A stretch of 64,000 bases of DNA from Candidatus Magasanikiibacteriota bacterium (GTDB lineage Bacteria; Patescibacteriota; Patescibacteriia; Magasanikbacterales; UBA922): NCBI GenBank assembly GCA_052033375.1, contig JBPOJQ010000003.1, forward strand, positions 10,503 through 74,502, given 5' to 3'. Both the position numbers and the translations under genes were made by a program. Shown in pieces: positions 3,997-64,000 of this stretch; the stretch's first letter is position 1; each line of letters begins with the position of its first letter. Below the pieces are notes generated by a model that made no database searches, was not told the origin of the DNA, and worked only from the letters and a program-made list of their open reading frames with translations.

Positions 3997-4016
3997 ATTT
4001 TTAGGATTAGCGTTAG

Positions 4017-6361: not shown

Positions 6362-6363
6362 AT

Positions 6364-7227: not shown

Positions 7228-7229
7228 AG

Positions 7230-11473: not shown

Positions 11474-11475
11474 AC

Positions 11476-13831: not shown

Positions 13832-13840
13832 ATATGCTTC

Positions 13841-43382: not shown

Positions 43383-43754
43383 AACTATTTTTAACCTTTT
43401 ACCTATAGCTGTACGCGACCTGGCTAAAGCCAGGTGTCACTGCGATAGGCATGTTTTAATTAATCCACTTCCCCCTCCAATATGGAGGGTCGACCTTGCT
43501 GGCGGTGGTTTTGTGCTCGAGGGCCAAACCCGAGCATTTTTTGCCCCTAAACCATAGAGTGTATCTATGGCACTGTATGGCAATCATGGAGACGAGCATT
43601 GTACAGAAACTCATCTTGCATAATTGCCACACTGTTCTAGGGGATGGCGTTCACACAAAAACTAGATAACAATTGATACACCTTGCTTCTACTCTTTCTT
43701 TTCGAGGCAAAGTGGAAAAGGACGTACATACTACCCTTTCCACTTTGTCCCGAA

Positions 43755-44963: not shown

Positions 44964-44965
44964 GA

Positions 44966-45577
44966 TTACTTTTTCTTTCTACCAGGGTTTACTTTACTGT
45001 GCACCGATTTTTTATCCTCAATCATTTTCTTCAAAATCTTCAACGCACGATGGAGTGTTACTCGCACAGATACCGTGCTTTTTCCTAATATATGTGCAAT
45101 CTCGCTCGTTGATAATTCTTCAATATATTTGAGTACGATAATTTCTTGGTACTCTCTTTTCATTATTTTCAAATTTCTAAGTGCCAGCTCAACCTCCTGA
45201 TCACGCATAGCCGTCTCTTCGATATTATGATCATGGGCGACTGTTTCTAATACTTCAATGGTGCACTCTTTTCGTTTTGCTCGATTTCTAAAGAAATCAA
45301 CCAAGGAAGTACGCGCGATAGTGTAGATAAGCCCACTGAAACTCTTAATCTCTTTATCAGCCTCTCTCTGAATATCAGTAAGATAGTTCCACGTTTTCAA
45401 AAATACATCACTTGCAATATCTTCTGCCTCTTCTTTGTGCGAGACTTTGAGATAGATGAATCGGTATATTTTTGAAACATACCGGTCATAAAGTTCGCCA
45501 AAAGCTTCGGTATCTTTGTGTACCCGCACTCTATAGACAAGCTTCTTTTCGTTAAATGTATTCAGTGCCTTCACCAT
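44966..45577 (-). CDS. ECF-type RNA polymerase sigma-70 factor
   Basis: Region 2: YDRYVSKIYRFIYLKV...AEDIASDVFLKTW. Region 4 HTH: ELSTSEIAHILGKSTVSVRVTLHRALKILK. Confidence 0.85.
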   Translation of the reverse strand: MVKALNTFNEKKLVYRVRVHKDTEAFGELYDRYVSKIYRFIYLKVSHKEEAEDIASDVFLKTWNYLTDIQREADKEIKSFSGLIYTIARTSLVDFFRNRAKRKECTIEVLETVAHDHNIEETAMRDQEVELALRNLKIMKREYQEIIVLKYIEELSTSEIAHILGKSTVSVRVTLHRALKILKKMIEDKKSVHSKVNPGRKKK

Positions 45578-45754
45578 AGAAGACGGAAATATTATGAAAG
45601 TGTTACAGTTGGTCGAATACTATCATCTGGAGATACCCCAGACTATAGCATAAAAATGCCAAATAATAAAGGCTTACTGTACACATATATACGGTACCGC
45701 CCAAACACCGTAACAGGGTAAAATAAGCCCAAACATAGCCTTATTTAGGCTATT

Positions 45755-45895
45755 TTGTATATACTATTGTATACATTTTTGTTATATTTGTATATACTAT
45801 TCTATACAAATAGGCATCTGAACGTGCCCCCATCAGGGGTCTACCCTTGACAAAAACCGTATAATTGGTAGTATTTGTATATACAAATCTATACT
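45755..45895. promoter_or_regulatory. Three copies of a 21-bp palindromic operator-like motif TTGTATATAC-N5-TATAC(A/T), with inverted half-sites TGTATA/TATACA
   Basis: Copies lie at 45755-45775, 45788-45808 and 45875-45895. The first two are 33 bp apart centre to centre. The third overlaps the leader or first codons of the HTH gene. Confidence 0.55.
45847..45874 (+). promoter_or_regulatory. Sigma-70-like promoter for the HTH gene
   Basis: -35 TTGACA at 45847-45852, a 16-nt spacer, and -10 TAGTAT at 45869-45874. The third operator copy lies immediately downstream. Confidence 0.45.
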
Positions 45896-46285
45896 ATGGT
45901 AATTCAACCCCCCATCTCAACACCTGACCATAAAGAGATAATCAGAGTCTCAATTTCAGAAGCAGCACGTCTTTTTGGTGTTAATCCACAGACCATACGA
46001 CGAGCTATTAGAGACCAAGAGATCACATACGTCGTAGTCGCTGGTAGATATAAGATCAATTTTGAAAGTCTGGTGAAATGGTCACAGAGGAAAACCACGG
46101 TCAAAAACAAGACTGAAAAACACGGTATCGGACAATTCGTAGACAAATGGAAGATCTCTAATACCCTCTACTCTCCGAGTAAAAAAGCAGTGACTAAGAC
46201 AACGGTAGTACCTGAATCATTACCTGCTGAGCAACAAACAGACAACGTATCTACATCCGAGATCTCAACTAATACTGAGAATTAA
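45896..46285 (+). CDS. Excisionase-family (HTH_17/MerR-like) DNA-binding protein
   Basis: RVSISEAARLFGVNPQTIRRAIRDQEITYVVVAGRYKI matches the excisionase-type HTH. The ORF-track start at 45875 is a TTG inside the operator, so ATG 45896 is preferred. Confidence 0.55.
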   Translation: MVIQPPISTPDHKEIIRVSISEAARLFGVNPQTIRRAIRDQEITYVVVAGRYKINFESLVKWSQRKTTVKNKTEKHGIGQFVDKWKISNTLYSPSKKAVTKTTVVPESLPAEQQTDNVSTSEISTNTEN

Positions 46286-46330
46286 TGCTATACTAGAAAA
46301 GGATATTCGCGTGTTCTTTTTTCAAACACA

Positions 46331-46371
46331 ATTCCTAACATATACAGATTTCATTTTCCTAATATAAACGG
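46331..46371. repeat. Inverted repeat (10-bp arms TATACAGATT, 21-nt AT-rich spacer) upstream of the GC-rich lipoprotein gene
   Basis: tatacagatt...aatctgtata, perfect arms. Confidence 0.6.
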
Positions 46372-46437
46372 AATCTGTATACGCTAGGAGACGCCTAGTC
46401 GTACGATCTTTTCAACCTACCAAAAAGGGACCCCCCC

Positions 46438-47328
46438 ATGCTTCGCTCGATGTTTCTGTGCATCTTCCTCTTCCCGTTCATGAGCTGCGACATCACCATC
46501 CCGAAAAGCGGGAAAGTGATCCGAGGAACCTATCACAGTGCCGCAGACACCACCGGCGGCGAGGACACTGCCCCAGTCGACGTGTCTACGTCGACGGAGG
46601 CTGATGGCACCTCTGTCACCACTCCCCAGGACGTCGGCACCTCGACGGCGACCGACACCACCAGTACCTCGCTCGGTGAAGACACCGCCGACTCTCATGA
46701 CACCGAGAATCCGGTACCACCGACTCTCCGCGTCTGCAGCACAGACGGGGAGTGCATCGACGAGTACCCGAACAACGGGTTCGTCTGCGACGACGACGGA
46801 CACTGCACGCACCCGTCCTTCTCCTGCGAGACCGACATCGACTGTCCTCCGGACAAAAATGTCTGCAACGGCATCAAGGTGTGCCTTGATCGAAGCTGCT
46901 ACCTGACCGAAAACCCTGACTGCGATGATGGGAATCGCTGGACAGGCGACTTCTGCAGTCCAGCAGACGGCTGTGGACACTACAACATCGAGTGCACGGA
47001 CGACCAGGGCTGCGGGGAGGACGAGTACTGCGATACCGAAAGCAGGCGTTGCGAACCGATCGGCGCATGCGATAGTCCGGACGACTGCGATGACGGAAAT
47101 GCGTGCACCTATGATCGGTGTACGCTGACCGAGTGCTCAAACATACCTATCGCATGCGCCGACTGGGATCCGGACACCATGGATGTCTGCGACCCGACGT
47201 TGATGTGCCTCTTTACCGAGGGGTGCACCACGAACGCGAACTGTGTCGACGATGACTTCTCAACCGAAGACGTCTGCGATGACGGTTTCTGCAGGCACAT
47301 CTGCAAGGACGGTGAATGCCCTCCTTGA
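46438..47328 (+). CDS. Cysteine-rich secreted lipoprotein with Myxococcus-type cysteine-rich repeats (GC-rich island 2)
   Basis: Lipobox FMSC with Asp at +2 (CDIT). Asp/Thr-rich linker. Repeated CDDGNxCTxDxC spacing: DCDDGNRWTGDFCSP, DCDDGNACTYDRCTLTEC, and others. Very GC-rich. SD AAGGGA upstream. Confidence 0.65.
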   Translation: MLRSMFLCIFLFPFMSCDITIPKSGKVIRGTYHSAADTTGGEDTAPVDVSTSTEADGTSVTTPQDVGTSTATDTTSTSLGEDTADSHDTENPVPPTLRVCSTDGECIDEYPNNGFVCDDDGHCTHPSFSCETDIDCPPDKNVCNGIKVCLDRSCYLTENPDCDDGNRWTGDFCSPADGCGHYNIECTDDQGCGEDEYCDTESRRCEPIGACDSPDDCDDGNACTYDRCTLTECSNIPIACADWDPDTMDVCDPTLMCLFTEGCTTNANCVDDDFSTEDVCDDGFCRHICKDGECPP

Positions 47329-47382
47329 GGGCGTAGTGGTGGGTGAAGACACCTAAAGAGGATCCCACTACTGGGTCATGCG

Positions 47383-47430
47383 CGCCACACCAGCGCGCAT
47401 GACCCACTTCAATCTATTTTGCAATTTGCA
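47383..47430 (+). terminator. Rho-independent terminator
   Basis: Perfect 13-bp stem gggtcatgcgcgc/gcgcgcatgaccc with a 7-nt loop, then acttcaatctattttg. Confidence 0.6.
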
Positions 47431-47557
47431 GAAATACTACCTGTTGTATATCAAAGCTATGTCCACATACTACAACACGCACTATTTCTGCGCATTGGAA
47501 AACTGAAAAGACACGGTGTTTTTTCAGACAAGACGACTCACCCAACAGAGGAACACA

Positions 47558-48285
47558 TGTGGCGCATTGCTCTTTCTTTGGTCATCATGTTACTCGTGGC
47601 CTGCGACATCACGGACGGTGAATCATACGAGTCCCTCTCGATACACAGAGAGGATGTCACAGACACATCGAGTGACGGTGTACTCCAGCCAGCAGATGAC
47701 ATCATCCTCGAACATGGGCTCATGCGTGTCGAGAAAATCGACACTGCTCTTAGCCATCTATTCACCCCCGACACCACGTCTGATTCCACATCTGATGTAC
47801 AGGCACCCGACACTGCCGTACCAGACGAAATCGAGGTACTGTTCACAGAGACTATCCCCTGTACAGAGGACTGGCACTGTGCACCTGGCAAAGAGTGCAC
47901 TCCTGATGGACTCTGCATCACACAGCTCGTGTGGATCGCTGTCATTACAGGGTCCGACGGCTCTCATCCGCCAGTACTGGACCACAGCGGAGAGGAAGTC
48001 ACACTCTGGTATGGACGTGAACCATGGACAGAGACACATCAGGTTCCCTACACAGGATGGCTCCCGCTCGCAGAACTCTGCGAGAGTGGGATTGAAATGG
48101 AACTCCGGAATCCGTCTGACGACGGGTATCCATATGGCGAAGGATGTGTGACTGATTTCAAGAATCTGACACCCTACCTATTCGCCAAGCGACTGGAGTT
48201 CACCATCCATGAGAGCGGTACTGGAGACATGTGTCCAGAGATGCTCCACATCGCTCGAGATCAACTACCCTGCGACAAGGACTGA
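47558..48285 (+). CDS. Secreted lipoprotein of the same family, with the shared C-terminal LWYG module (GC-rich)
   Basis: Lipobox LLVAC with the same CDIT continuation. SD AGAGGAA 5 nt upstream. The C-terminal VTLWYGREPWTETH aligns with KVKLWYGNHTEPETY of the 60165-60902 gene. The ORF-track start at 47419 is AT-rich leader. Confidence 0.6.
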
Positions 48286-48298
48286 CGCATCCGGAGAG

Positions 48299-48375
48299 TG
48301 ACGCACGATACACCGCGTCGCTCTCCGGCCCACACACTTTCGAACTACTCATATTGAGTGGTTTTTTGTTATAAA
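48299..48375 (+). terminator. Terminator region: a GC hairpin (14-bp arms, one mismatch) followed by an AT hairpin and a T-run
   Basis: ccggagagtgacgc...gcgtcgctctccgg, then actca-tat-tgagt ggtttttt. Confidence 0.5.
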
Positions 48376-48529
48376 AATACTTATGTATATTCTGGAGAAA
48401 CCTACGACATCGACATCACAAACTCCGCTTGGACACACGTCCATCTATCTGATGCTGATGGTTTGTCTAGTGTACACAAAAATCCACACCGAAAAGGTGT
48501 GGATGTTGCTACTATACTTTTTTTCTACA

Positions 48530-49705
48530 TTAGACTCTTACTGAAGAAAATAATGGTGATTTTTTTGCTAATATACCTCGATATACACCTTCTGTCTTTT
48601 CTACAATATGTTCCCATTCATACTTCTCATAAATAATTGCACGATTCTGCTTACCTACCTTCATTCGATCTTCTTTCTTCAATTTCATAAATTTCTCAAG
48701 TCTGGACACCAGCGAGTCTACATCATTTTCTTTGAAAAACATTCGCTCATCTCCAATAATCTCTCTATGCTCTGGAATTGAGGAAAGTAATACTGGAATT
48801 CCATGGCTCATCGCTTGAAGTACTGTAATTGGCAAACCTTCATTTATTGACGGGTGTACGAGCGCACGCGCATGCGCATAGAGCTCATTGAGTGCTTCCC
48901 CAGACTGAAAATCAGTAAAAATTACATCATTCATAGTCGCTGCCGAAATATGCAGACTCTGAACATATGAATCAGTATATGCCGCCCCACCTACGATAGC
49001 CAATTTGAGCGACTGAATTGTTTTATTCTTTCTATTTCTTTCTTTTAATTTTTTGAATGCTTCAATCAAAATATGTGCTCCCTTATGGGGTACCAATCGA
49101 GAAATCATTACTATGTATCTACCAGACGCGAGACCAAATGATGTGATATGTGATTTTGTTTTTACCTTTGATGGCATATCGACCCCATTCGATATATACG
49201 TCGTATCTACACCATACTCAACTTTCAGATACTCGTGCAAACTTTTTGACACACAAATAGTGTCGTGTGCAAACGTATATGCAGCTCTCTCACCCAATCG
49301 AAGAATCGCCCTAGCAAACCAGTTCCATTTTTGATGAAAACGATCCAGTGAATGGAGCGTGACTATTACCCGCATCCGTGGTCTGAATATTCGAGGAATC
49401 CACGCGAGAAGAGCTGGGCCAACCCCGTGATAATGGATGACATCATAGGATGCAAAAAGTGCATGCATCGTCGAAGTGAAGACATGCACAATAGTATCAA
49501 GATGTTTGGTCTTAATCGTTCTAGTATGTACACGCTGAACACCCTCGACAGTATCAGTGCCTGTGCTACCGGTATACCATTTTCTCGAGTATACGGTCAC
49601 TGTGTGTCCACGTTCAGCAAGACGAACCGAAAGATCGTGAACGTGTCTCTCAACGCCACCGTAGACTGCGGGAATACCTTTTTGACCAATCATGGCTATA
49701 CGCAT
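48530..49705 (-). CDS. Glycosyltransferase family 4
   Basis: MRIAMIGQKGIPAVYGGVERHVHDLS...GHTVTV in the N-terminal domain. C-terminal GT4 motifs LAIVGGAAY...EGLPITVLQAMSHGIPVL. Confidence 0.75.
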   Translation of the reverse strand: MRIAMIGQKGIPAVYGGVERHVHDLSVRLAERGHTVTVYSRKWYTGSTGTDTVEGVQRVHTRTIKTKHLDTIVHVFTSTMHALFASYDVIHYHGVGPALLAWIPRIFRPRMRVIVTLHSLDRFHQKWNWFARAILRLGERAAYTFAHDTICVSKSLHEYLKVEYGVDTTYISNGVDMPSKVKTKSHITSFGLASGRYIVMISRLVPHKGAHILIEAFKKLKERNRKNKTIQSLKLAIVGGAAYTDSYVQSLHISAATMNDVIFTDFQSGEALNELYAHARALVHPSINEGLPITVLQAMSHGIPVLLSSIPEHREIIGDERMFFKENDVDSLVSRLEKFMKLKKEDRMKVGKQNRAIIYEKYEWEHIVEKTEGVYRGILAKKSPLFSSVRV

Positions 49706-49854
49706 ATGCTACAGATATACACAGTTATATCGGATTAACGAACATCGTAGTATAACACAGACAAGAGCTTTTGTCAAGCATGGTTTTCTCTCTGGTATAT
49801 GATATAAAATTGCTTATTTTAGCCATTTTTTTACTTCTTCTCCCCTATACGTTC

Positions 49855-51705
49855 TTAGCGTACAGTACCACCTTTTGCACCCCCTCGCGCATCTGTGTTG
49901 AGCGATGCATCAAAAGCACCGAGCGCACGCGTGAAAGAGTAGCCGATATACGAATCCCACCCAGAAATTTCGACACTCTGTATCAAAACTGGAGTGGTGC
50001 CGCGATCAGCCTCAGTCGGTGTCAAACTAAGCTCAAAAAATACACCTGCATTCGAGTGTGCTGAAATAGTTCCCATATTCCAACGTAGTGTGCGTGTCGA
50101 TGGAGTATATACTGGTGCTGAACCTTGGGTAACACTAGTTTTTCCAGTCCACACGACTCCAGGAGACAATCGCGCAGTAAATATACCCTCAGTCACATTA
50201 CTCGTTGTGTTACGTATAGTGAATAGACCTGCATACTTGGTCTCTTTTCCCACTTCAGGAGGAAGAGGTCCTCTACCCAATTGATCCCCCTCATCCGTAT
50301 AATAACGAATTTCACCAACCAATGTGACGTCAGTACCAACTTTGATTGATTCAGGTACTGAGACCGCCTCTACTGATACTTCTGGTGCTAATAGCACATT
50401 CCCTTTAAATCGAACCGTGGGCTGAAGTACGATATTGGTACCTGCATCAGATGTGGAAATAACTGGAACTAATAAGGTGATGACTCGTGATTCTCCGGAT
50501 GGTATTGAACGCAAATTAGTGTGACGGACTGAATTAAGTGTCACGGTATTCTGAGCTATCGAGCCTGCATTTGCTCGTGCTGCTTCTGACACATTTACTG
50601 TTCCTCGTGGAAACGACACCTCAATCACTCCTCCCGACAACTCTACAGTACCTCTATTGAAAATATTCACTAATAGCCTTCCTGTCTCACCAGGTTTGAG
50701 AGATGAAATCGCTGAATCCCACGCAGTGGTTATCTGCACTTCAGGATGTCCAATTGTCATGGTTTTTTTCACGACTGATTGTGGAATCGTCTTCCCCTGC
50801 ACGATAATTGCTGGTGCAAGTTCGATTGTATACCCGGACTGTGGGAGAGTGTCTGAGATATGCAATGATCCCCGTAATGTCACCGCCACATTCGGACGTA
50901 ATTCAGATACTGACCACGCATGCTGGTCTCCCAGACCTTCAGTCGTTGAGACATGTTCTACGACTCCAATTGTCTGGAACGGTGCAAGTGGAAATACGAT
51001 ATCTCGCAATATCTCATCGCCTGTGTTGGTAAGCGTGATAGAAAAAGGAATATGTGAATCTTCAATCACCTTATCCTGGATGTCGATTGATGCATTGAGA
51101 AGTGAACCACGCAAAAATATGATATGCGGACCTACTTTTTCTTCAACATGATTCTTTCCGTCCTGTCGATATGCGATCGTTGCATGAATATGATCTTCTA
51201 CATTGGGTGTTCCATAAAATCTTCCTGCCACTGATACACTCCCTTCTTCACCCACTCCAATAGTTCGAAGATTGAATGTCTGCGTTTCACTTTCGAATTG
51301 CTCTTTCGGTTCAGCTGCACCGACAATAAAACCATCGGGCAACTCGACAGATAATCGCACATCAGCCAAACGCACACTGCTCTCATTTGTATAGTTAATG
51401 GTATATGTGACATATTCACCACTCAATACCCTATCCTTCGAAGGGACGACAGAGAGATACACCAACTCGGTCACTGTCGGATTATACGTACTCCACCCAA
51501 GCAGTGCAGCACCAATGACTATGAGTGTTGCCACCAATGACATGTCGAATAAAAATAATTTTCTTGCATGTGAAAACTGGAGATGATACCGCTTTTGATA
51601 ATGCATCTCGGCAAAATGAATTGGTGATGCTAAAAATGCGAAAAACCATCGATGTGGAGCGTGGAATAAATGGTGCTTAGTGAGATGTGTTTCAACGAAT
51701 TTCAT
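49855..51705 (-). CDS. Membrane-anchored beta-rich repeat protein (DUF11/CARDB-like), hypothetical
   Basis: N-terminal transmembrane segment LVATLIVIGAALLGW, then about 550 aa of beta-strand-rich Thr/Val/Ser repeats with no catalytic motif. Confidence 0.4.
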   Translation of the reverse strand: MKFVETHLTKHHLFHAPHRWFFAFLASPIHFAEMHYQKRYHLQFSHARKLFLFDMSLVATLIVIGAALLGWSTYNPTVTELVYLSVVPSKDRVLSGEYVTYTINYTNESSVRLADVRLSVELPDGFIVGAAEPKEQFESETQTFNLRTIGVGEEGSVSVAGRFYGTPNVEDHIHATIAYRQDGKNHVEEKVGPHIIFLRGSLLNASIDIQDKVIEDSHIPFSITLTNTGDEILRDIVFPLAPFQTIGVVEHVSTTEGLGDQHAWSVSELRPNVAVTLRGSLHISDTLPQSGYTIELAPAIIVQGKTIPQSVVKKTMTIGHPEVQITTAWDSAISSLKPGETGRLLVNIFNRGTVELSGGVIEVSFPRGTVNVSEAARANAGSIAQNTVTLNSVRHTNLRSIPSGESRVITLLVPVISTSDAGTNIVLQPTVRFKGNVLLAPEVSVEAVSVPESIKVGTDVTLVGEIRYYTDEGDQLGRGPLPPEVGKETKYAGLFTIRNTTSNVTEGIFTARLSPGVVWTGKTSVTQGSAPVYTPSTRTLRWNMGTISAHSNAGVFFELSLTPTEADRGTTPVLIQSVEISGWDSYIGYSFTRALGAFDASLNTDARGGAKGGTVR

Positions 51706-51837
51706 AGATATCTATCTCAAAACTTAAAACTCAAAATTCAAAACGAGAACTACAAATGTACAACTCCTTATTCTTCAATGTAATAATACTTGATCCAAGC
51801 ATATTTGCAACTTCTGCAAGCTCATTTTGTTTTTATT

Positions 51838-53847
51838 TTACAATGCCCCTTCACTCAACGTCACAATTTCATCTATTCCATCAAAATCAATATCAAGTGC
51901 TCGCACCTCTACCCCTGGCTTGAATACTGTAGAGTATGCGTCAAATGATTTGTATTTTTCTTTTCCCTCAAGTGAGAATACTCTGACTGTCGGTTTTCCT
52001 CCATATCCTTTTCCTGCAATAATTTCCTGCACCCCATCTCCATCCACATCTCCAGCAGCTACTGACACCCCGCCTGTAAACGATGTTTCAAAAGCTGTAA
52101 ACGAATGTATTTTTTTATACTCATATCCAAATAAAGTGATCGTCGGACGTGCTCCTGCTCCTGACCCAACAATGAGACGGGATGGTACTTTTTCTGTTGC
52201 CTTGGTCAGACTAATGTGATACCCGCCTGTATAGGTATTTCCAAATGGAAAAAAATCATTTGCTAATGTATTCCCATGACGATTGTACGACCGAATTGGT
52301 TCTCGAAAACCTGCGCTCGGCGCTGTATATATTTCATAAAAGCCATCATTATTCAAATCACCCACTGCCACATTCAATGAACCTGTATAATTTGCACCAT
52401 ACGGCATCAATCTGAATAAAATCTGGCCATCATCTCTCCATGCTTGAATTTTATTTCCCATCACCACAATCAATTCTTCAGCTCCATTAAAATCCAAATC
52501 AATGTGAGCAATCTGAGCACCACCTTTGTGTTTCTCCTCAAAAACGAAGAATCCATTTTTTGCCCGCTCGCCATCTGCTCTGAAAAAACGAGCAAAAAAA
52601 CCATTGGTAAACACAATCTGTTTGAGCGTCTGAAATGTCTTGAGTAATATAATTCCATCTTTTGGCGCAAGTGTGACTTCTGCAACAATTGCTCCATTAT
52701 TTATTTCTGTATCCTGCGTACCATGTATTTTTTCATATTCACCACCGAGAGAGACACCTCGCGTCTCGCCTGTACTATTGACAACCGCAATTCCATTTTC
52801 AAATGTTCTACTCCACACGTCTTCGGCATATTTGGATTTTCCTGTCTGCGAGCGTGCAGATCCGAGCGGATCGCCAAGCGATACTCCATATTCATCATAA
52901 TTCCACAGCCGTGCATGATCCTTGTCCCCATAATCAAACGAATAGTAGCCATTTTCAAGCAATGCTGAAGTAAGACCAAAACGCATACTGCGATAATTTT
53001 TTGCATTCTCGACATTTCCTGTATTTGCATTGATAATATTCACTGTTGGTCGATTTCTTGTAAGCTGATTCTCCTGATACACAGACATAATTTCTGACCA
53101 TGGATGATTCTGAAAATTTTCAATCATCTTTCCATTGAGTGATTCAGTATACCCTCGCGTATGCCCATTACCGATAATAATAGGATCACCCGGAGCCTGT
53201 GCGCGAGTATCCTCATATAATTTTTTCATTCCTTCATACCATTTCTGGTCAATACCTGTATCTGGAGACCCGTTGCGATCATAATCTACCCGAGTACCTG
53301 AAAACCATGTGAGATCTTTCCACGCATTATCATAAAATACACCGTCCCATACTCCAGATCCCAAAATTTCTGTAGCAACAAAATGAGACAAGTACTCATT
53401 GAAATTCTTTCCATTATGTTCTGGGGCATTTTCAGCTAGATTGAGCATTGTCGTGCCCTGCCAAAAACTATATGCAGCACCCAGGTCGTTTGCCAGATAC
53501 CACTCGGAAGAAATTCCTCGCGCCAAACGATCACGCATCTTACTCGGACCCCCGAGCGCATCATTTCGAATTTCTTGGGGAGTAATGTATGCAAGCAAAA
53601 TAATCCCCGGATTCAAGCGACGCAATTCACGGAGACGCTCGGGATTGGTCACTTGATTTTCCATATCAAGGACCAAGAGATCCCATTTTGCAAGTTCACG
53701 CATCTCAGCATCCGTAATACTCCATTTCAAAAAATAATTTGCAGTTTTTGGATACGTCTCAGTATATGCAACAGACACACTCACTACAGTGCCATATGCG
53801 CACAGTCCGAGAAACAAAATTGATTGTATGAAACGCGCCAATGTCAT
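51838..53847 (-). CDS. Secreted glycoside-hydrolase-like (GHL) domain protein with C-terminal FG-GAP/VCBS repeats
   Basis: Signal peptide. The N-terminal about 400 aa (WDGVFYDNAW..., GNGHTRGY...) resemble the putative glycoside-hydrolase GHL families. The C-terminus carries calcium-binding FG-GAP-type repeats: DLNNDGFYEI, GDVDGDGVQEII, DIDFDGIDEIV. Confidence 0.45.
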   Translation of the reverse strand: MTLARFIQSILFLGLCAYGTVVSVSVAYTETYPKTANYFLKWSITDAEMRELAKWDLLVLDMENQVTNPERLRELRRLNPGIILLAYITPQEIRNDALGGPSKMRDRLARGISSEWYLANDLGAAYSFWQGTTMLNLAENAPEHNGKNFNEYLSHFVATEILGSGVWDGVFYDNAWKDLTWFSGTRVDYDRNGSPDTGIDQKWYEGMKKLYEDTRAQAPGDPIIIGNGHTRGYTESLNGKMIENFQNHPWSEIMSVYQENQLTRNRPTVNIINANTGNVENAKNYRSMRFGLTSALLENGYYSFDYGDKDHARLWNYDEYGVSLGDPLGSARSQTGKSKYAEDVWSRTFENGIAVVNSTGETRGVSLGGEYEKIHGTQDTEINNGAIVAEVTLAPKDGIILLKTFQTLKQIVFTNGFFARFFRADGERAKNGFFVFEEKHKGGAQIAHIDLDFNGAEELIVVMGNKIQAWRDDGQILFRLMPYGANYTGSLNVAVGDLNNDGFYEIYTAPSAGFREPIRSYNRHGNTLANDFFPFGNTYTGGYHISLTKATEKVPSRLIVGSGAGARPTITLFGYEYKKIHSFTAFETSFTGGVSVAAGDVDGDGVQEIIAGKGYGGKPTVRVFSLEGKEKYKSFDAYSTVFKPGVEVRALDIDFDGIDEIVTLSEGAL

Positions 53848-57501: not shown

Positions 57502-57547
57502 ACAATTTCATCTAAGTATATCATATGCAGAAGAAAAATTAAAAAGA

Positions 57548-57582
57548 AAAAATAACAAACAAAAAACCGCATAGTGCGGTTA
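57548..57582 (-). terminator. Rho-independent terminator of the GC-rich lipoprotein gene
   Basis: aaccgca-tag-tgcggtt hairpin. On the minus strand it is followed by ttttttgtttgtt. Confidence 0.6.
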
Positions 57583-57592
57583 TTCTAGCGTG

Positions 57593-57640
57593 CCCTTCTA
57601 CTCTATCTTCAAGATAATACTTGAATTCAGAGTAGAGGGG
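57593..57640. repeat. Inverted repeat (12-bp arms, one mismatch, 24-nt AT-rich spacer) at the left edge of GC island 3
   Basis: cccttctactct...agagtagagggg, with a nested ttcaag/cttgaa palindrome in the spacer. Confidence 0.55.
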
Positions 57641-57766
57641 AGGAAGCGGTCGCTGTAGTAGCGAGCGCACTTCCCCCAGTTTGTGTGATTGTCTTCGAAC
57701 ATTCACCTACAGAAGCGAATCACACGTTCACTTCGAGATGCTCCTGCAGTCGTCGCAGAAGAAGTT

Positions 57767-59815
57767 CTAGGGTGCCGCGGGGCATCCCAGGTCGTTGTCA
57801 CCGTTCTCGTCGGAGAGCCACAGGTTGCCCGGCGGAGCGCCGTCGCATGCCTGCGGATCACGAACCTCGAAGTCGTTCGCCTTCGTGACACCATTGACCA
57901 TGACGGTCAGGGTGGACTTCGAGGGGAACCCCGGGTTGCAGTCCCAGAACAAGTTCGTGCTCGGACGGTTGACGGCGATGTCGACGCCCCAGCTGCATGC
58001 GAGCGTCTTCGGCAAGGTCCCGTCGAAGGGCATGTTGCCGGAGATCGTCGTCCCGTTGTAGTAGAAATTGACCTGCCAGGTCTCCGACGTGTCGGTCGAC
58101 GAGACCTGCACGCGGACACCTTCCACGTGCTGGCAGACGAGCTCGACGCAGGTGTCGTAGGTCAGGGGATTGCTGTCGTTGCAATCCGCGTTGACCGTGC
58201 AGTTCCCCGTCGGCGTGTACACGCAACCCGTCGCCGGATCGCAGGTGTCGGTGGTGTTGGAGTTCCCGTCGTTGCACACCACCGCGGTGTGCTGCACCCC
58301 CATCTCGGGATCGCACGCGTCGATGGTGCAGGCGTTGTTGTCGTTCGTCGTCACCGCCATGTGTTGGCAGGTGTTTGCCGAACAACTGTCGATCGTGCAG
58401 ACGCTTCCGTCATCGCACGTGAGCGGCGTACCCGCGACGCACCCGGAAGCCGGGTTGCACGTCTCGGTGCCGTTGCATGCGTTCCCATCGTCGCAGACGA
58501 TCGCGACGTGTGTGACCGCGCCGGTCTCGGGATCGCACGCGTCGATGGTGCAGGCGTTGTTGTCGTTCACCGGATCGACCTTCTGCGCCATGCACTGTCC
58601 ATTGACGGGATTGCACGTGAGGCCTCCGCAGAGGTCCCCGCCGCAGTCCTTCTCGACGTGGGTGACCACGCCGGTCTCGGGATCGCACGAATCGATCGTG
58701 CAGTTGTCCCCGTCGGTCAGGACCTTCCAGCCCGTCTCGACGCACACATGTTCCGCGCACGCCATCTCGGTGACGCACGCGGTGGTGGGCTCGCAGTCGT
58801 CGTCGTCTGCGCATTCGCACGCCTCGGACGGCATGAACGCGTACTCGCAGACGCCCTGCAAGTTGCAGGTGTCGGTGGTGCACGTGTCGCCGTCGTCGCA
58901 CTCGGCCCCCTCACCTTCCGAATCGCAGTACACGAGACACGAGAGGTTCGGCAGATCCCAGGGCAACACGTCGGGGTAGAGGTCTCCGTCGCAGTCGACG
59001 TCGCAGACGTCGCCCATGCTGTCCTCGTCCATGTCCTCCTGCCCCGCGTTCTTGAAGCGGGGGCAATTGTCCTCGCCCTCGCAGATGGGCATCACCAGCG
59101 CGTTTCGCGGCATCGAGACGGGGGCAGCTTCGTCGCAGAAGCTGTCGTTGTCGTCGTCGGTGTCGCAGACGTCGCCCCAATCGTCGCCGTCCAGGTTCGC
59201 CTGGTCGGGGTTGACGTTGTCGGGGCAGTTGTCGACGGGGTTCAAGACCCCGTCGCCGTCGACGTCGTTGTCGCAGACGTCTCCGACGAAATCGTCGTCC
59301 AGGTTCGCCTGGTCGGGGTTCGGATCGGCGGGGCAGTTGTCCTCGCCCGCACACATCTCGACCTGACCCGGATGGGATTTCTCCCACCCGTCCTCGTCGA
59401 GCCAGGGGTCGCAGAAGCCGTCGTTGTCGTTATCGTTGTCGCAGACGTCTCCGAAGAGATCCCCGACCACGGTGACGTTGCCGTCGGCACCGGCCAGGAC
59501 CTGGTCCAGGTTCGCCTGGTCGGGGTTCGGATCGGCGGGGCAGTTGTCGACGGGGTTCAAGACCCCGTCGCCGTCGCGATCGGTGTCGCAGACGTCGCCC
59601 ATGCCGTCGCCGTCGGTGTCCACCTGGTCGGGGTTGTACCACCCCAAGCAGTTGTCGCGGTTGTCCGCGACGTCGTCACCGTCGGTGTCCGCGGCCTTCG
59701 TGAAGCCGAGCCCGCCGTCGTTGCCGGATTCGTCATACGCACACGCCGCCATGAACCCCATGGCAAGGGCACCCAAGATGCAGAGCACCCGGGTGTTGTT
59801 GTTCTTCAGACGCAT
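57767..59815 (-). CDS. Secreted lipoprotein with about 8 thrombospondin-type-3 calcium-binding repeats, many Myxococcus-type cysteine-rich repeats and the shared C-terminal module (682 aa)
   Basis: Signal and lipobox ...GFMAAC. TSP3 units DTDGDGMGDVCDTDRDGDGVLNPVDNCPADPNPDQANLD are repeated. Cysteine-rich units DNNACTIDACDPETGAVTHVAIVCDDGNACNG are repeated. SD GGAGGAAGG lies 4 nt upstream. Very GC-rich. The C-terminal LFWDCNPGFPSKSTL aligns with TYWGCNDGLPSKRDI of the 60165-60902 gene. Confidence 0.7.
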   Translation of the reverse strand: MRLKNNNTRVLCILGALAMGFMAACAYDESGNDGGLGFTKAADTDGDDVADNRDNCLGWYNPDQVDTDGDGMGDVCDTDRDGDGVLNPVDNCPADPNPDQANLDQVLAGADGNVTVVGDLFGDVCDNDNDNDGFCDPWLDEDGWEKSHPGQVEMCAGEDNCPADPNPDQANLDDDFVGDVCDNDVDGDGVLNPVDNCPDNVNPDQANLDGDDWGDVCDTDDDNDSFCDEAAPVSMPRNALVMPICEGEDNCPRFKNAGQEDMDEDSMGDVCDVDCDGDLYPDVLPWDLPNLSCLVYCDSEGEGAECDDGDTCTTDTCNLQGVCEYAFMPSEACECADDDDCEPTTACVTEMACAEHVCVETGWKVLTDGDNCTIDSCDPETGVVTHVEKDCGGDLCGGLTCNPVNGQCMAQKVDPVNDNNACTIDACDPETGAVTHVAIVCDDGNACNGTETCNPASGCVAGTPLTCDDGSVCTIDSCSANTCQHMAVTTNDNNACTIDACDPEMGVQHTAVVCNDGNSNTTDTCDPATGCVYTPTGNCTVNADCNDSNPLTYDTCVELVCQHVEGVRVQVSSTDTSETWQVNFYYNGTTISGNMPFDGTLPKTLACSWGVDIAVNRPSTNLFWDCNPGFPSKSTLTVMVNGVTKANDFEVRDPQACDGAPPGNLWLSDENGDNDLGCPAAP

Positions 59816-59868
59816 TTGGCCTTCCTCCGTAGTGTGAGGCCGTTGAACTCCAGCAGTGACACTGTGTC

Positions 59869-59938
59869 TCAGCTAGAGGGTGGCTATCGATACAAGATAT
59901 GTTGCATATATCAGTATCTGCACCCATCCTCTAGCTGA
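59869..59938. repeat. Inverted repeat (15-bp arms, one mismatch, 39-nt spacer) upstream of the 57767-59815 gene
   Basis: tcagctagagggtgg...ccatcctctagctga. Confidence 0.55.
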
Positions 59939-60164
59939 ACATAGAACTTATGTGATTATAATGAACATACACACTTGAGAATGATTCTCCAGTGGCGCAT
60001 ACCAGATACCTCTCTAGATATCCGATATGCGTGGACACAATCGTACCAACATATCAAGAAAAGAGTATTTTGTCAATATAATTCTATAAAGTGAATTAGT
60101 GGTGCTCGCGAAAGGAGGCGGCATAGCGTATACGCCATCCTACCCTTCGCGAGACACCCGCCCC

Positions 60165-60902
60165 TCAGTCACATGCGAGCTGTGCCTGCAGGAAGTAGAG
60201 ATCCCCCTCTCCCTTCCCACCGCACGCAGTGTTGGGGACCTCCCATCCGAGATCCGCGGCAAAATAACCGAATGCCTCTGCACCGTCGATCTCGACCGCG
60301 ATATCCCTCTTCGAGGGAAGACCATCGTTGCATCCCCAGTATGTCCCTGGAAACTCCTGGTCCTCTACCGCGAGAGTGAGCATGCCGTTTTCGACGCAGA
60401 GATCCATCTTCCGGATCTCGAAGCTCGAGTTCATGGGATAGGTCTCTGGCTCGGTGTGATTCCCATACCAGAGCTTCACCTTCCCCGGACGCTCTGCGCG
60501 TACGGTGAAATGAGTCACCCGGTGTACACTGGAGCATGCCCCAGTGTCGGGGACGCACTCGTCATCCGTCCAGCGATTCCCATCGTCGCAGTCGATTGCT
60601 CGATTACGACATGTGCCCTGGATGCAGACATCGATCGTGCACATGTCGCCATCATCGCAGGGGTTTCCCTCTGCAATGAACTCCTCGATGTCGCACTCAC
60701 TGGGCGACGCCGGAGGAAGCTCGATCTCGTACCGATCACGGATGACCCGCGAATCAGCATCTTCGACTTCCTGGAGTATATCCTCGATCCCCGTCGACGT
60801 ATCGACCTGGATCATGGTCGTACCCCTCTGTCTCATGTCCTCGATGCACGCAGTCGTAATCACGAAGTAACAGACGCACAAACGAAACATCTTAGAAAGC
60901 AT
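60165..60902 (-). CDS. Cysteine-rich lipoprotein, a family member with the shared C-terminal module
   Basis: Start at ATG 60902 (MLSKMFRLCVCYFVITTAC lipobox) with SD GAGGGGA upstream. The ORF-track start is a GTG 12 nt earlier. Motifs NPCDDGDMCTIDVC and DCDDGNRWTDDEC. C-terminal LWYG...YWGCNDGLPSK. Confidence 0.6.
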   Translation of the reverse strand: MLSKMFRLCVCYFVITTACIEDMRQRGTTMIQVDTSTGIEDILQEVEDADSRVIRDRYEIELPPASPSECDIEEFIAEGNPCDDGDMCTIDVCIQGTCRNRAIDCDDGNRWTDDECVPDTGACSSVHRVTHFTVRAERPGKVKLWYGNHTEPETYPMNSSFEIRKMDLCVENGMLTLAVEDQEFPGTYWGCNDGLPSKRDIAVEIDGAEAFGYFAADLGWEVPNTACGGKGEGDLYFLQAQLACD

Positions 60903-60990
60903 GTGTCCCCTCACGTATTGGTATGAACTGGCGTGTAGAATTCCTCTACCGTTGATATACCATCATCATATGGATATACCCAAGGTAATG

Positions 60991-61017
60991 GAATTTAAAA
61001 AACCCGTGGATACGGGT
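60991..61017. terminator. Bidirectional rho-independent terminator
   Basis: aaaaaa-cccgt-ggat-acggg-ttttt. Confidence 0.55.
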
Positions 61018-61365
61018 TTTTCCCGCGTAAAAGTCGATCTTCTCCGCGGCTCATTTTCGTAACCCGCTTCATAGTAAAGCAGATACACCATTGTACCATA
61101 CCACACACAGGTGTTGTATGACTGGGTCAGCATAGTATGCCTATTCTGACCGTGTTATTTCCCACATCTCTTTACCAATACTCACTAGTCGCTCACTGTA
61201 ATCTGAGTTCTGAATTTTGATAAAGATATGTTGGAATGGGAGAGGGGCTCGTCAATGAATCGTTTGCACGATCCACTGAACGCTAGGCCCCGCTCCCGCA
61301 ACTTGTACCATAGTGAACCCTGAGTCTTGTTGCTAAACTACTCAGGGTACGTACCGATATGTCCT

Positions 61366-62373
61366 CTACTCCTCGGGGCAGTAGAAGTTGGTCCACCGGT
61401 TCAGGTCGCAGACGAGCCAGCAGCCGTGCTGCTCGGGCGTCGTCCCGACGAATACGTCCGCAGGCGCGTAGTTGTAGTGCGCGTCTGCGTTCGTGACACA
61501 ACGGTCCTCGCCGTTGTCGTTTCCGACAACGAAGTCAGACCCGACCTGGTTCACGAACTGCTGGACATTGAACAAGGCAACCTCACCCTCACAAATCGTG
61601 AGGGTGTGGCAGGAGCCAGCACCGTCCGGGCAGGACATCCAGATGGCCTCGGGCCACCCGAGGGAGCCCGCACCGCCAACCGACGCCTGAAAGCGCCAGT
61701 TCTGCTTCACCGTGAAGGTGAAGCACTCCGGCGAACCCTGATCTTCGCAGCGGTTCGAGGAGTTGTTGCACTCCTCGCCATCCCCGCAGTCGCCATCCTC
61801 GACGCAGCAACCGGGGATGGGCGTGTTGTAGCACACACCACTCACCGTGTTGCGCCAATCTTCCGTGCAGATGTCTCCATCATCGCACGTGAAGGTTGCG
61901 TCATGGCAGGCGCCCCACTGGCCCCAGTGGCCGGCGGAGCACGTCCGCTCCTGCGTCCCCGTGTTACCGGTGCCGCAGGACTTCGACTGCTCGGACCCAT
62001 CGACGCACTCGTCGGGGTCTGCGCAGGTGCCCCACTGGCCCCAGTGGCCGGTGGTGGCGCACGTCCTCGTCTTCGTCCCGCGACCATTGAGGCCGCAGGA
62101 CACCTGCTCGGTCGCGCCGACCGAGCACTGCTGGGTGGGGGGGAACGGCGTGCTGTCGCACACGTTCCCTCTGCCGTCGCCGTCCGCGTCCGCCTGATCC
62201 TGGTTCGGATCGGCGGGGCAGTTGTCGGCGTCGTCCTTGACGCCGTCGTTGTCGAAGTCGGTGTCGGTGTCGGTGCAGTCGTCGCAGCCCTCCTCGGGCT
62301 GCTTCTCCCAGTCGCACGCGACCGCGACGATGATGAACGACGACGACAGGACGAACATGGTGATGTTCTTCAT
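61366..62373 (-). CDS. Lipoprotein with TSP3 repeats and a cysteine-rich C-terminal region (family member)
   Basis: Lipobox VAVAC with Asp at +2. TSP3 units DFDNDGVKDDADNCPADPNQDQADADGDGRGNVCD. Cysteine-rich C-terminus. SD GGAAAGGAA upstream. GC-rich. Confidence 0.65.
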   Translation of the reverse strand: MKNITMFVLSSSFIIVAVACDWEKQPEEGCDDCTDTDTDFDNDGVKDDADNCPADPNQDQADADGDGRGNVCDSTPFPPTQQCSVGATEQVSCGLNGRGTKTRTCATTGHWGQWGTCADPDECVDGSEQSKSCGTGNTGTQERTCSAGHWGQWGACHDATFTCDDGDICTEDWRNTVSGVCYNTPIPGCCVEDGDCGDGEECNNSSNRCEDQGSPECFTFTVKQNWRFQASVGGAGSLGWPEAIWMSCPDGAGSCHTLTICEGEVALFNVQQFVNQVGSDFVVGNDNGEDRCVTNADAHYNYAPADVFVGTTPEQHGCWLVCDLNRWTNFYCPEE

Positions 62374-62459
62374 GACTATTCCTTTCCCCCTGTCTGAGGG
62401 GGACTCTCGAGTGATCTCGCCGGAAACCTTCCGGCGAACATTGTAACGCTATGGTACTT

Positions 62460-62512
62460 CCGCAGCGTGTAGAGAACATATTTTTGTAAAAACACACTCT
62501 CTACACACTGCG
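62460..62512. repeat. Inverted repeat (16-bp arms, one mismatch, 21-nt AT-rich spacer) upstream of the 61366-62373 gene
   Basis: ccgcagcgtgtagaga...tctctacacactgcgg. A second, perfect 7-bp inverted repeat tacagaa-tttc-ttctgta lies at 62531-62548. Confidence 0.6.
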
Positions 62513-62749
62513 GATTTGTAAGGTACATGTACAGAATTTCTTCTGTATATGAAGTAGTGTCCACCTGTCTACTCCCTATACAATAGAAATACGTATCATA
62601 ATTTTTCTCACCTTATTCCCCACATCCATATGATATGAAGAGTAAGTTGAGCTCTGGAGAACGAGAAGGTGCCACCCTTCATACGTTTTCCAGAGCGATC
62701 GATTCCCGAGCCCTCATTTTCCTCCGAAGAGGTATTGAGGAGCTCCTGA

Positions 62750-63577
62750 CTAGAACCGATATCCGGCGGTGAACACACCGCCGAGACCAAAGGAGATCTC
62801 CTCCGGTCTCATCTCGACACCGAGGATGGCGTCGAGACCGAGCACCGCTCTCCGATCTTCCCCGAGGAAGTACCGGATTGCAGGCCCGAGGCCCGCCGTG
62901 AAGTGATCCGTTCGGCTGAAATTACCGTGATCGACCAGCGTGCCGACCACGATCCCACCCGTAAGGAACCCTTCTCCCCAGAGGTAACCGGTCCGTGCGG
63001 ACCAGCCGAACCCATGGGGCGATGCCCCCGCACCGGCGACGAGGAAGAATTCCCCGCCCTGGTTCGGAAACACCAGACCGACTTCGACGCCAGCTGAGAG
63101 GCCGACGAGATCACTCGCCAGCCACCCGCCGAGGCCGAACATCGGCCCCCCGAGCTTGTCGATCTTGCCCTTGATGCCGGCGACCTCGACCTCGAGCTTG
63201 TCGATCTTGCCCTTGATGCCGGCGACCTCCGCACCGAGCTGTTTGCACTGCCCGAGCAGGGTCACCAGGTCCGCGGACGGACCCTTGACCTCCATGAGCG
63301 CCCCCTCGAGGGACGTGATCTTCCCCTCGAGGGACGTGATCTTCCCCTCGAGGTTCTGATCTGTCCTGCGGAGAGCTCCTGCCCTGCGGAGAGCTCCTGC
63401 CCTCCACTTCTCCTTCTCGACCTCGAAGCGAATCGCCTCGAGGTCGACGAGTGCTGCGCGAGCCTTGTCGACCGCCCCCTTTCGGATCTGGTCGAACTGC
63501 TCTTGGGCGGTGGGCTCTGCAGCCTGCACCGGCGACGCGACCAGCATCAGCATGGCCGCAACGATCATCATCATTCC
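62750..63577 (-). CDS. Secreted coiled-coil protein with in-frame tandem repeats and a Gly-rich beta C-terminal domain ending in Phe (outer-membrane-barrel-like)
   Basis: Probable start at MMMIVAAMLMLVASPVQA-AEP (signal peptide). The ORF-track start at 63895 adds an Arg-rich extension that looks artefactual. Repeats: AGALRR x2, LEGKITS x2 and a 14-aa unit built on AGIKGKIDKL x2. C-terminal ...GGVFTAGYRF. Confidence 0.5.
   Translation of the reverse strand, partial: GMMMIVAAMLMLVASPVQAAEPTAQEQFDQIRKGAVDKARAALVDLEAIRFEVEKEKWRAGALRRAGALRRTDQNLEGKITSLEGKITSLEGALMEVKGPSADLVTLLGQCKQLGAEVAGIKGKIDKLEVEVAGIKGKIDKLGGPMFGLGGWLASDLVGLSAGVEVGLVFPNQGGEFFLVAGAGASPHGFGWSARTGYLWGEGFLTGGIVVGTLVDHGNFSRTDHFTAGLGPAIRYFLGEDRRAVLGLDAILGVEMRPEEISFGLGGVFTAGYRF
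63152..63401. repeat. Nucleotide-level tandem duplications inside the coiled-coil gene
   Basis: A 42-nt unit x2 at 63152-63235 (36 nt identical), a 21-nt unit x2 at 63303-63344, and an 18-nt unit x2 at 63366-63401. Confidence 0.7.
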
Positions 63578-63621
63578 CTTCACGGCATTTCTCCTTCCCC
63601 TCCGTGAGGAGGGGACGTGAC

Positions 63622-63945
63622 TCAGTTGTTGCTGCCCTTGTCGATCTGGCCGCCGAAGGCGACCGTTCCGAGACGCCAGCACCGTGCTGCCGCCTCGTCG
63701 TCTTCTGCCTGGATCAGGCACTTCGCTGCCCTCTGGCACTCGAGTCCCTGATCCTCGTCGCCGGTCTTGTCGACGAATTCGTACACGCACTCCTTGAGTG
63801 CGAGTTCGAATTTCTCGTCCACGTTTCTGCCCTTGGCGGCACCGCGGAAGACCGTCTCGATCCCACCCTCGAAGGTGGCGACGACGACCGACCACTCCTG
63901 ATCGGTGAAGAAGCCACCGGGGCGGAGCCCCTTGACCTGCGTCAT
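63622..63945 (-). CDS. Hypothetical GC-rich ORF; may extend beyond the window edge
   Basis: Open frame with codon-like periodicity in a GC-rich context. No recognisable motif. Confidence 0.25.
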   Translation of the reverse strand: MTQVKGLRPGGFFTDQEWSVVVATFEGGIETVFRGAAKGRNVDEKFELALKECVYEFVDKTGDEDQGLECQRAAKCLIQAEDDEAAARCWRLGTVAFGGQIDKGSNN

Positions 63946-64000
63946 GACGCAGGTCCCGAACTCGTCCCCGGACAGCCCTTTGCAGGGATCCGCCGGGTTC

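Follow-up and report, generated by a model that had tools for sequence, protein, structure and literature searches.

In the repeat adhesins of streptococci and staphylococci, concerted evolution proceeds by intragenic gene conversion, and repeat variation is reportedly discussed for the SD-repeat proteins of staphylococci. The gene considered here lies on the complementary strand at positions 57767-59815 of a 64,000-nt stretch of DNA (the window, throughout) from contig JBPOJQ010000003.1 of a Candidatus Magasanikiibacteriota bacterium. Its product of 682 amino acids (aa), here named A682, resembles these adhesins in being a predicted surface protein with in-frame repeats, in which paralogous units are locally closer to each other than to their orthologs and the tracts of identity are short and mosaic. 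However, the repeats of A682 are dispersed and heterogeneous instead of forming a long tandem array, and a change in copy number was not observed.

The N-terminal part of A682 (aa 43-285) is homologous to the thrombospondin type-3 repeats (TSP3) of COMP, TSP-2 and TSP-1, as found in a search of PDB sequences (3fby, 1yo8/2rhp and 1ux6; E-values from 1.4e-33 for COMP 3fby to 2e-13). The likeness includes aspartate-rich motifs and paired cysteines, and the two unit types which alternate in A682 presumably resemble the N-type and C-type motifs of thrombospondins. Unlike these, A682 is a predicted bacterial lipoprotein without an EGF or an L-lectin-like C-terminal domain; its TSP3 region is followed instead by Dicty_CTDC modules and by a small, unrelated domain modeled as a beta-sandwich.

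Both repeat types of A682 also occur on surface proteins of Myxococcus, namely the polymorphic receptor TraA with its Cys-rich repeats, TraB (TSP3 and OmpA) and MtsC. TraA/TraB alleles are polymorphic and have been diversified by horizontal gene transfer and homologous recombination (PMC6372800). A682 differs from these systems in having both repeat types in one polypeptide, in lacking the PA14-like variable domain, MYXO-CTERM and OmpA, and in being most conserved at its C-terminal domain and most variable at its N-terminus. Candidatus Peribacter riflensis, of the candidate phyla radiation (CPR), has clustered, signal-peptide-bearing Cys-rich extracellular proteins which are a main source of strain variation, have been proposed to act in attachment and show weak similarity to Cys-rich repeat proteins of Myxococcus (PMC4736985). 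These are larger than A682 (approximately 1,655 aa) and belong to genomes of 58% GC, so that no compositional contrast was reported, and conversion tracts were not analysed there.

Identical tracts and the alleles compared

A682 has five TSP3 units, with DNC motifs starting at aa 54, 90, 159, 195 and 249, followed by Cys-rich modules termed a to e. An earlier, sequence-only reading had noticed near-identical repeats in both regions and took them as a sign of recent cassette expansion. The repeats themselves were confirmed, comprising exact tracts of 45, 44 and 41 nt (Table 1). Their positions proved correct to within a few bases, with the second Cys-rich copy beginning some 6 nt earlier; the shared core was found in all three TSP3 copies, and the third, diverged Cys-rich copy noticed near 58671 is module b. 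A 21-nt exact match also joins 58519 and 58669 in the Cys-rich modules. The repeats are dispersed at spacings of 108, 207, 315 and 222 nt, each a multiple of three, and no tandem array was found in A682, Tandem Repeats Finder (TRF) giving only trivial rows of 6-15 nt.

The closest allele, identified by protein search, is P0001 (680 aa, 80% aa identity at 100% coverage). It sits on contigs L001 and L002, which derive from two sequencing runs and have identical gene sequences, and on L003, a 277-kb contig of a metagenome-assembled genome (MAG) in which L001 is contained at 100%. A homolog representing a third lineage is present on contig L004 (43% identity by tblastn, approximately 52% in global alignment, 51-52% aa). 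No further alleles were found in a scan of JGI metagenome contigs, which gave only TSP3-level relatives of at most 47% identity over long segments.

The proteins of the window and P0001 are colinear with gaps of only 1-2 residues, agreeing in their five TSP3 units, each with a positional ortholog, and in their Cys-rich modules. The L004 homolog also has five TSP3 units. Unit number is thus equal in window, L003 and L004 and has remained unchanged, so that the variation in repeat number between strains which had been anticipated is as yet unsupported. At greater evolutionary depth module composition does vary, the Cys-module content of the distant L004 allele being different.

The L003 allele has similar codon bias (GC content at third codon positions, GC3, 0.887), yet none of its internal repeats exceeds 26 nt, the next longest being of 24 and 23 nt. 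With W denoting a window unit and P an L003 unit, W2 equals W3 at 45/45 positions, whereas they match their own orthologs at 38/45 (W2) and 37/45 (W3); that is, tracts 59504-59548 and 59297-59341 differ from their L003 orthologs at 7/45 and 8/45 positions respectively. W2 and W4 are identical at 27/27 nt upstream of DNC, and in the 45 nt downstream of DNC, W4 matches P2 at 43 positions but its own ortholog P4 at only 34. Likewise, block 2 of the window (aa 166-209) is closer to block 1 of L003 (112/132) than to its own ortholog (105/132), the blocks within one genome agreeing at 110/132 positions for the window and at 96/132 for L003. With the 41-nt tract, 59536-59576 differs from its L003 ortholog at one position of 41 and its twin 59221-59261 at ten. 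This asymmetry would therefore make the former the donor and the latter the recipient, where conversion probably extends to about 59188.

In the Cys-rich region, modules c and e are identical over 44 nt in the window, while the L003 copies differ at nine of these positions. Relative to L003, 58525-58568 (module c) shows three differences and 58303-58346 (module e) six. Over the 3′-terminal 786 nt, where window and L003 are otherwise 95-99% identical, the two differ at 25 positions, and the clustering of six of these in the module e tract has P = 0.002. Outside the tracts, the proportion of synonymous differences (pS) between repeat copies amounts to 0.23 for the window and 0.40 for L003; inside them it is 0.

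Origin of the identical tracts

The tracts have probably arisen by short-tract, non-reciprocal gene conversion between old, diverged repeat units of A682 in the window lineage. Being patches of 41-45 nt, shorter than the 108-nt unit, which overlap as a mosaic within older and diverged repeat blocks, they point to this process and not to recent duplication. Paralogous copies that are locally closer than orthologous ones, mosaic tracts and clustered differences, the hallmarks of gene conversion, were all found in the comparison with the one close allele. The tracts, their excess over the expectation from codon bias (see below), the colinearity of the alleles, their equal unit number and the greater closeness of paralogs than orthologs are observations, and the view that such repeats are substrates for recombination is borne out by the footprints of recombination seen among them.

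The direction and order of events, and the molecular pathway, we infer to be as follows. In a first event, sequence from the unit 1/2 junction would have replaced approximately 70 nt or more at the unit 3/4 junction; in a second, later event, units 2 and 3 would have been homogenised at their starts; and at least one more event would have taken place between Cys modules c and e. Every event would postdate the split of the window allele from its closest known allele and would have left unit number unchanged. The PADPN variant of units 2 and 3, which is not in the L003 allele, was possibly imported from the neighboring paralog at 61366-62373. The single TSP3 unit of this paralog has a match of 26 nt to 59524-59549 and of 25 nt to 59317-59341, and the probability of the same codons given the same peptide (DNCPADPN) is approximately 0.03, by our own arithmetic from per-amino-acid values; the paralog as ectopic donor is thus suggestive only. 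The pathway may have been RecA-type homologous repair with a misaligned repeat as template. RecA-dependent recombination in E. coli is efficient from roughly 25 bp upward, a length which the tracts of 41-45 nt surpass. Unequal exchange between the tracts, deleting or duplicating 69, 74 or 105 codons in frame, is plausible, and none was seen in the three lineages.

A number of points weigh against gene conversion in the window lineage. There is one close allele only, L004 being too diverged at the level of units (pS saturated) to serve as an outgroup, and hence the polarity of the changes is assigned by parsimony. The stretch TGCACCACCGACACCTGC of module e in L003 equals module a of the window, and the two modules share an 18-nt string; instead of a conversion from c to e in the window, the L003 lineage may have undergone one from a to e, and the direction for module e is uncertain. 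The GC3 of 0.89 raises background identity, for which the permutation described below corrects while assuming that codon choice is independent of position. It should also be mentioned that the window represents one assembly only, which is probably metagenomic, and that the case is built on assembled sequences.

The best placed of the other explanations, though improbable, is that the window kept an ancestral identity while the L003 lineage changed by point mutation or by conversions of its own. That no outgroup polarises the changes would allow for this, and the 18-nt string common to module e of L003 and module a hints at conversion in that lineage. However, with a window-L003 synonymous divergence (dS) of 0.29-0.42 in these regions, the window itself should have broken three identities of 41-45 nt, and the closeness of W4 to P2 rather than P4, together with the one difference in the donor against ten in its twin, would need massive divergence of P4 alone. 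Even this explanation still involves conversion and not expansion.

Recent cassette expansion, with units newly duplicated and a repeat number dependent on the strain, is very unlikely. The near-identical tracts do exist, the in-frame spacings would make products of unequal recombination viable and the Cys-module content of L004 differs, all of which would suit such an expansion. Yet a new duplication is expected to be identical over its whole unit, whereas here identity covers 41-45 nt of 108 and the flanking repeats are old (pS 0.23-0.40), and expansion is largely refuted by the colinear ortholog, in which every window unit has its positional counterpart and the identical tracts are absent. 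In the comparison of synonymous sites which had been proposed as a test, divergence is absent inside the tracts and at an ordinary level outside them, a combination that fits conversion and not expansion. A682 is also no phase-variable contingency locus with a recently expanded cassette array, as its repeats are dispersed and unit number is equal in the three lineages. Nor does it resemble the target of a diversity-generating retroelement (with variable and template repeats, VR/TR), the repeat pairs being identical or differing at all four bases; no reverse transcriptase was matched among those proteins of the window which were scanned, a part of its open reading frames (ORFs).

There is equally little to recommend an origin without recombination, by which purifying selection on identical peptides and extreme codon bias would have caused the DNA to converge. 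The GC3 of 0.89 does give a probability of 0.7-1.0 for the same codon given the same amino acid for D, N, C, Q, I, F, and K. For this reason the tracts were set against a null model in which the synonymous codons of the gene were permuted 1000 times, its protein and exact codon usage being kept. The longest exact repeat under this model had a mean of 21.9 nt and a 95th percentile of 32 nt; a repeat of at least 41 nt had P = 0.005 and three of them occurred in 0/1000 permutations, while the probability that all codons are identical given an identical peptide is 0.0006-0.004 per tract. In addition, the L003 allele, with equal codon bias, has repeats of at most 26 nt and other peptides at these positions, and therefore peptide identity is not constrained. 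An assembly artefact, with repeats mis-threaded or homogenised from short reads, could be imagined for a single assembly in which repeats are the classic trouble spots, but it is hardly credible given that tracts of at most 45 nt are probably below read length, that the gene is in frame and colinear, without a unit-sized indel, with an allele assembled independently three times, and that 207-315 nt should have been lost or doubled if reads had been joined wrongly at a repeat, which was not seen.

Architecture and features of the gene

A682 is a member of two Pfam classes, TSP_3 (PF02412; 66.1 bits against a cut-off of 25, in three stretches) and Dicty_CTDC (PF00526; 118.1 bits against 27, in five stretches). 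The five DNC...N.DQ units are aspartate-rich and putatively Ca2+-binding with paired cysteines in each, the two unit types alternating. The best NCBIfam match is to MtsC (NF047638, an equivalog for a cell-cell cohesion MYXO-CTERM protein), yet it is far below the cut-off (114.3 bits against 350) with only the TSP3 stretch aligning, and the C-terminus of A682 (...NDLGCPAAP) does not have a MYXO-CTERM sorting signal. The Omp28-related selenoprotein family (NF045500) is likewise matched below its cut-off, by the TSP3 stretch only (60.8 bits against 200).

Prokaryotic lipoproteins are recognised by N-terminal basic residues, a hydrophobic core and a lipobox whose final Cys is among the first 35 or so residues. 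Judged by eye, the N-terminus MRLKNNNTRVLCILGALAMGFMAAC25 follows this rule, and the N-termini of the paralogs are similar. A682 is predicted to be a secreted, lipid-anchored modular surface protein in which the lipobox is followed by five TSP3 units forming a Ca2+-binding stalk, by a disulfide-rich Dicty_CTDC rod and by a beta-sandwich domain, and it may serve as an adhesin or attachment stalk.

The C-terminal domain had no match in Pfam, NCBIfam or PDB sequences. An exhaustive profile search through 1.84 billion cluster representatives gave only 33 with this domain, which in nearly all cases forms the C-terminus of a secreted protein of Cys-rich, collagen-like or TSP3 type and has the four Cys and the LGCP end conserved. 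A word-indexed search gave one fragment only. The C-termini of 57767-59815, 60165-60914, and 47419-48285 are homologous to each other. AF2, with an alignment of 17 sequences, modeled the domain as a beta-sandwich (pLDDT 86.4, pTM 0.80), for which Foldseek found no significant neighbor in the PDB (best E-value 0.33). As modeled, it is an undescribed, conserved beta-sandwich.

This distal domain is the most conserved part of A682, which is the opposite of many adhesins. The membrane-proximal aa 1-70 (59610-59815) form the most divergent segment between alleles, with 47-65% aa identity, and an NG86 dN/dS (nonsynonymous to synonymous divergence) of approximately 2 was obtained for aa 1-42 between window and L003, on only 40 codons. 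The spacer upstream of the gene (59816-60164) is 92-97% identical between window and L003, as against 72-74% for the first 70 codons. It holds a promoter-like site with a -35 hexamer that is invariant in the upstream spacers of window, L003, and L004, a 5′-untranslated region (UTR) of approximately 230 nt and an inverted repeat with 25-nt arms (59869-59893 and 59914-59938). A search of the whole window with Rfam, this spacer included, identified no family. On the opposite strand lies an antisense shadow ORF (57689-59938, plus strand, 749 aa) which exceeds the real gene in length; a similar case is found opposite 61366-62373 and others in L003 and L004, and these ORFs are due to the GC3-rich codon usage.

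Table 1. Features of the A682 gene and of its surroundings (window coordinates unless a contig is named).
Feature	Position	Strand	Remarks
A682, ORF for predicted modular secreted lipoprotein	57767-59815	-	682 aa; Pfam TSP_3 and Dicty_CTDC above cut-off; GC3 0.89
Signal peptide with lipobox (MRLKNNNTRVLCILGALAMGFMAA, then C25)	59741-59815	-	By eye from translation; conserved in L003 allele
TSP3 region, aa 43-285	58961-59689	-	Pfam TSP_3; PDB sequence matches
Cys-rich region, aa 286-565, Dicty_CTDC-type modules a-e	58121-58960	-	Pfam Dicty_CTDC
C-terminal domain, ~115 aa (aa 566-682)	57770-58120	-	Four conserved Cys, ends ...LGCPAAP; profile search, AF2
45-nt tract, start of unit 2 = start of unit 3, encodes DNCPADPNPDQANLD	59504-59548 = 59297-59341	-	Exact direct repeat
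41-nt tract, unit 1/2 junction = unit 3/4 junction, encodes DGDGVLNPVDNCP	59536-59576 = 59221-59261	-	Exact direct repeat
25/24-nt core GTCCAGGTTCGCCTGGTCGGGGTT (NPDQANLD), unit 4 copy first	59188-59212 = 59296-59320 = 59504-59527 (24 nt)	-	Exact direct repeat
44-nt tract, Cys module c = Cys module e, encodes NDNNACTIDACDPE	58525-58568 = 58303-58346	-	Exact direct repeat
Third, diverged Cys module (module b)	58639-58719	-	79% to 58489-58569 over 81 nt
26-nt exact match in paralog 61366-62373 (DNCPADPN)	62202-62227	-	Candidate ectopic donor, against units 2 and 3
Promoter-like site TTGACA, 17-nt spacer with TG, TATGTT	60048-60076	-	-35 hexamer invariant in window, L003 and L004
Shine-Dalgarno GGAGGA, 7 nt before ATG	59823-59828	-	Read from sequence
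Terminator-like hairpin then T-run, downstream of A682	57565-57581	-	Sequence
Island gene	60165-60914		GC3 0.68
Island gene, paralog	61366-62373		GC3 0.88
Island gene	62750-63895	-	GC3 0.70
GC-rich stretches on L003	~4500-12900		
GC-rich stretches on L004	~3800-14500		
GC-rich stretches on L101	10001-13450, 21297-22508		
GC-rich stretches on L102	4933-20398		

The GC-rich island and exchange between lineages

The gene for A682 closes a GC-rich island which extends to the end of the window (57767-64000). Contigs L003 and L004 have a GC-rich island of 8.5-11 kb at the same place, between a gene of 932-948 aa and a glycosyltransferase (GT) gene. Between window and L003, dS is 1.1-2.1 in the flanks and 0.19 in the lipoprotein gene; between window and L004 it is 1.2-1.3 and approximately 1.1; and between L003 and L004 it is 0.39-0.66 in the right-flank genes (n = 2), 0.92 in the fast-evolving left-flank gene of 948/932 aa and approximately 1.0 in the lipoprotein gene. 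NG86 values of dS are approximate under such codon bias, but pS of 0.17 as against 0.57-0.71 is not an artefact of saturation. The flanks accordingly give the tree (window,(L003,L004)), in conflict with ((window,L003),L004) for the lipoprotein gene.

The identity profile of window 57552-61027, compared with L003 9635-13097 and with L004, is mosaic for window and L003. Identity is 95-99% over 58521-57622, including 3′ non-coding DNA, and 92-97% in the promoter and 5′-UTR, as against 72-74% in the first 70 codons and 57-85% in the flanking GT gene. The conflict between trees and the mosaic identity therefore indicate a recent exchange of alleles, or of parts of alleles, between genomes with a nucleotide identity of only approximately 70%. 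The lipoprotein and GT genes have an A-rich tandem repeat of 7/13/14 nt in the spacer separating them (57531-57567), and it is here that the high-identity alignment of window and L003 breaks with a large indel.

Another member of the island, at 62750-63895, encodes a protein with a signal peptide, a coiled coil and a Gly-rich C-terminus ending in ...YRF. It contains true in-frame tandem repeats, these being of 21 nt (2.5 copies, 100%; 63302-63353), 18 nt (2.4 copies, 96%; 63361-63403), and 42 nt (2.2 copies, 89%; 63150-63240), and is the gene in which recent expansion and length variation would really be expected. A search for anti-phage defence with PADLOC gave no match for six island proteins.

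With hardly an exception, the remaining long ORFs of the window, those of a polysaccharide-synthesis region, have GC3 of 0.26-0.41, as against 0.53-0.89 for the GC-rich genes overall (57767-64000; 46438-48285; 28371-29171). The 0.89 of A682, which is situated in a variable island, compares with 0.30-0.39 in its neighbors. The second of these locations holds two more GC-rich genes for Cys-rich lipoproteins between low-GC genes. At the third, a gene with a NUDIX domain (28371-29171, plus strand; GC 0.54, GC3 0.63) stands alone amid the low-GC polysaccharide-synthesis cluster. With no more than 42-47% GC in the spacers of the island, the enrichment is largely restricted to coding sequence. Amino-acid composition was rejected as the cause of the excess, as the signal is in GC3 and not in GC1 or GC2. 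A chimeric assembly was also rejected, there being low-GC genes on both sides of 46.4-48.3 kb and the same architecture in the independent assemblies L001/L002/L003, L004, L101, and L102.

Similar values were found elsewhere, the Cys-rich genes of a Candidatus Magasanikbacteria MAG having GC3 of 0.84 and 0.94 against 0.32-0.52 in their neighbors and those of a Candidatus Azambacteria MAG 0.70-0.85 against 0.29-0.39. That TSP3 genes are GC3-rich in general was rejected, since in other low-GC genomes they match their neighbors (for example, 0.17 and 0.24, 0.31 and 0.36, 0.34 and 0.36), and Cys-rich homologs in GC-rich genomes are compositionally native. The region 39693-53847 of the window is largely colinear with contig L101 (Candidatus Magasanikbacteria, JACPSK010000001.1), the shared genes being those for a 1229/1257-aa protein, a 402-aa protein, an ECF sigma factor (49%), a helix-turn-helix (HTH) protein (70%), a GT (56%), a DUF11 protein (35%), and a GHL15/FG-GAP protein (49%). 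At this second syntenic locus, both genomes have a GC-rich gene for a Cys-rich protein situated between the HTH and GT genes; the DUF11 and GT genes are on opposite sides of the Cys-rich gene in window and L101. The colinearity points to a probable Patescibacteria-like source, whereas the best outside homologs of the LhgO copy of the window, only 55-57% identical and of mixed phyla, are uninformative in this respect.

It may tentatively be proposed, as an idea which we consider rather doubtful, that the Cys-rich (Dicty_CTDC) surface-lipoprotein genes of Patescibacteria-like genomes form a hyper-recombining class in which a coding-restricted GC3 of 0.7-0.94 (genome 0.3-0.45) is actively maintained, the conversion tracts being one symptom. 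Candidate forces would be GC-biased gene conversion, drawing on recombination within genes, at ectopic sites and between lineages, or selection for properties of codons or mRNA. Alternatively, the anomaly is the passive trace left by genes which turn over fast and have repeatedly, and recently, been imported from GC-rich donors. Maintenance is favored by the host-like composition of the spacers, by the anomaly being at one locus in three lineages with synonymous-saturated flanks and by no close GC-rich donor homolog having been found, the best outside matches being at most 50% identical along no more than a third of the protein, though none of these points is decisive. No paper on a coding-restricted GC3 anomaly was found in the literature, the nearest being those on the Cys-rich proteins of Peribacteria (PMC4736985) and on TraA/TraB (PMC6372800).

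For the biology of this uncultured and likely episymbiotic bacterium, in which A682 is probably an attachment protein, the repeats mark homogenisation and not growth of a surface protein, and length polymorphism should not be expected without evidence in annotation or strain typing. The locus is a compact case of three layers of recombination, namely intragenic conversion, a suggested ectopic conversion from a paralog and allele exchange between lineages. Gene conversion is an ordinary and well-known way for such genes to evolve, and it is the GC-rich codons in an AT-rich genome that are odd; the GC3 excess, the exchange between lineages and the undescribed C-terminal domain are of more interest than the repeats themselves. 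In practical terms, composition-based binning may separate such islands from their own genomes, and gene callers may favor the antisense ORF 57689-59938 over the real gene. If the GC3 anomaly is general and actively maintained, it would bear on what determines base composition in bacteria (mutation bias as against biased conversion or selection) and on how CPR bacteria acquire and diversify their surface proteins.

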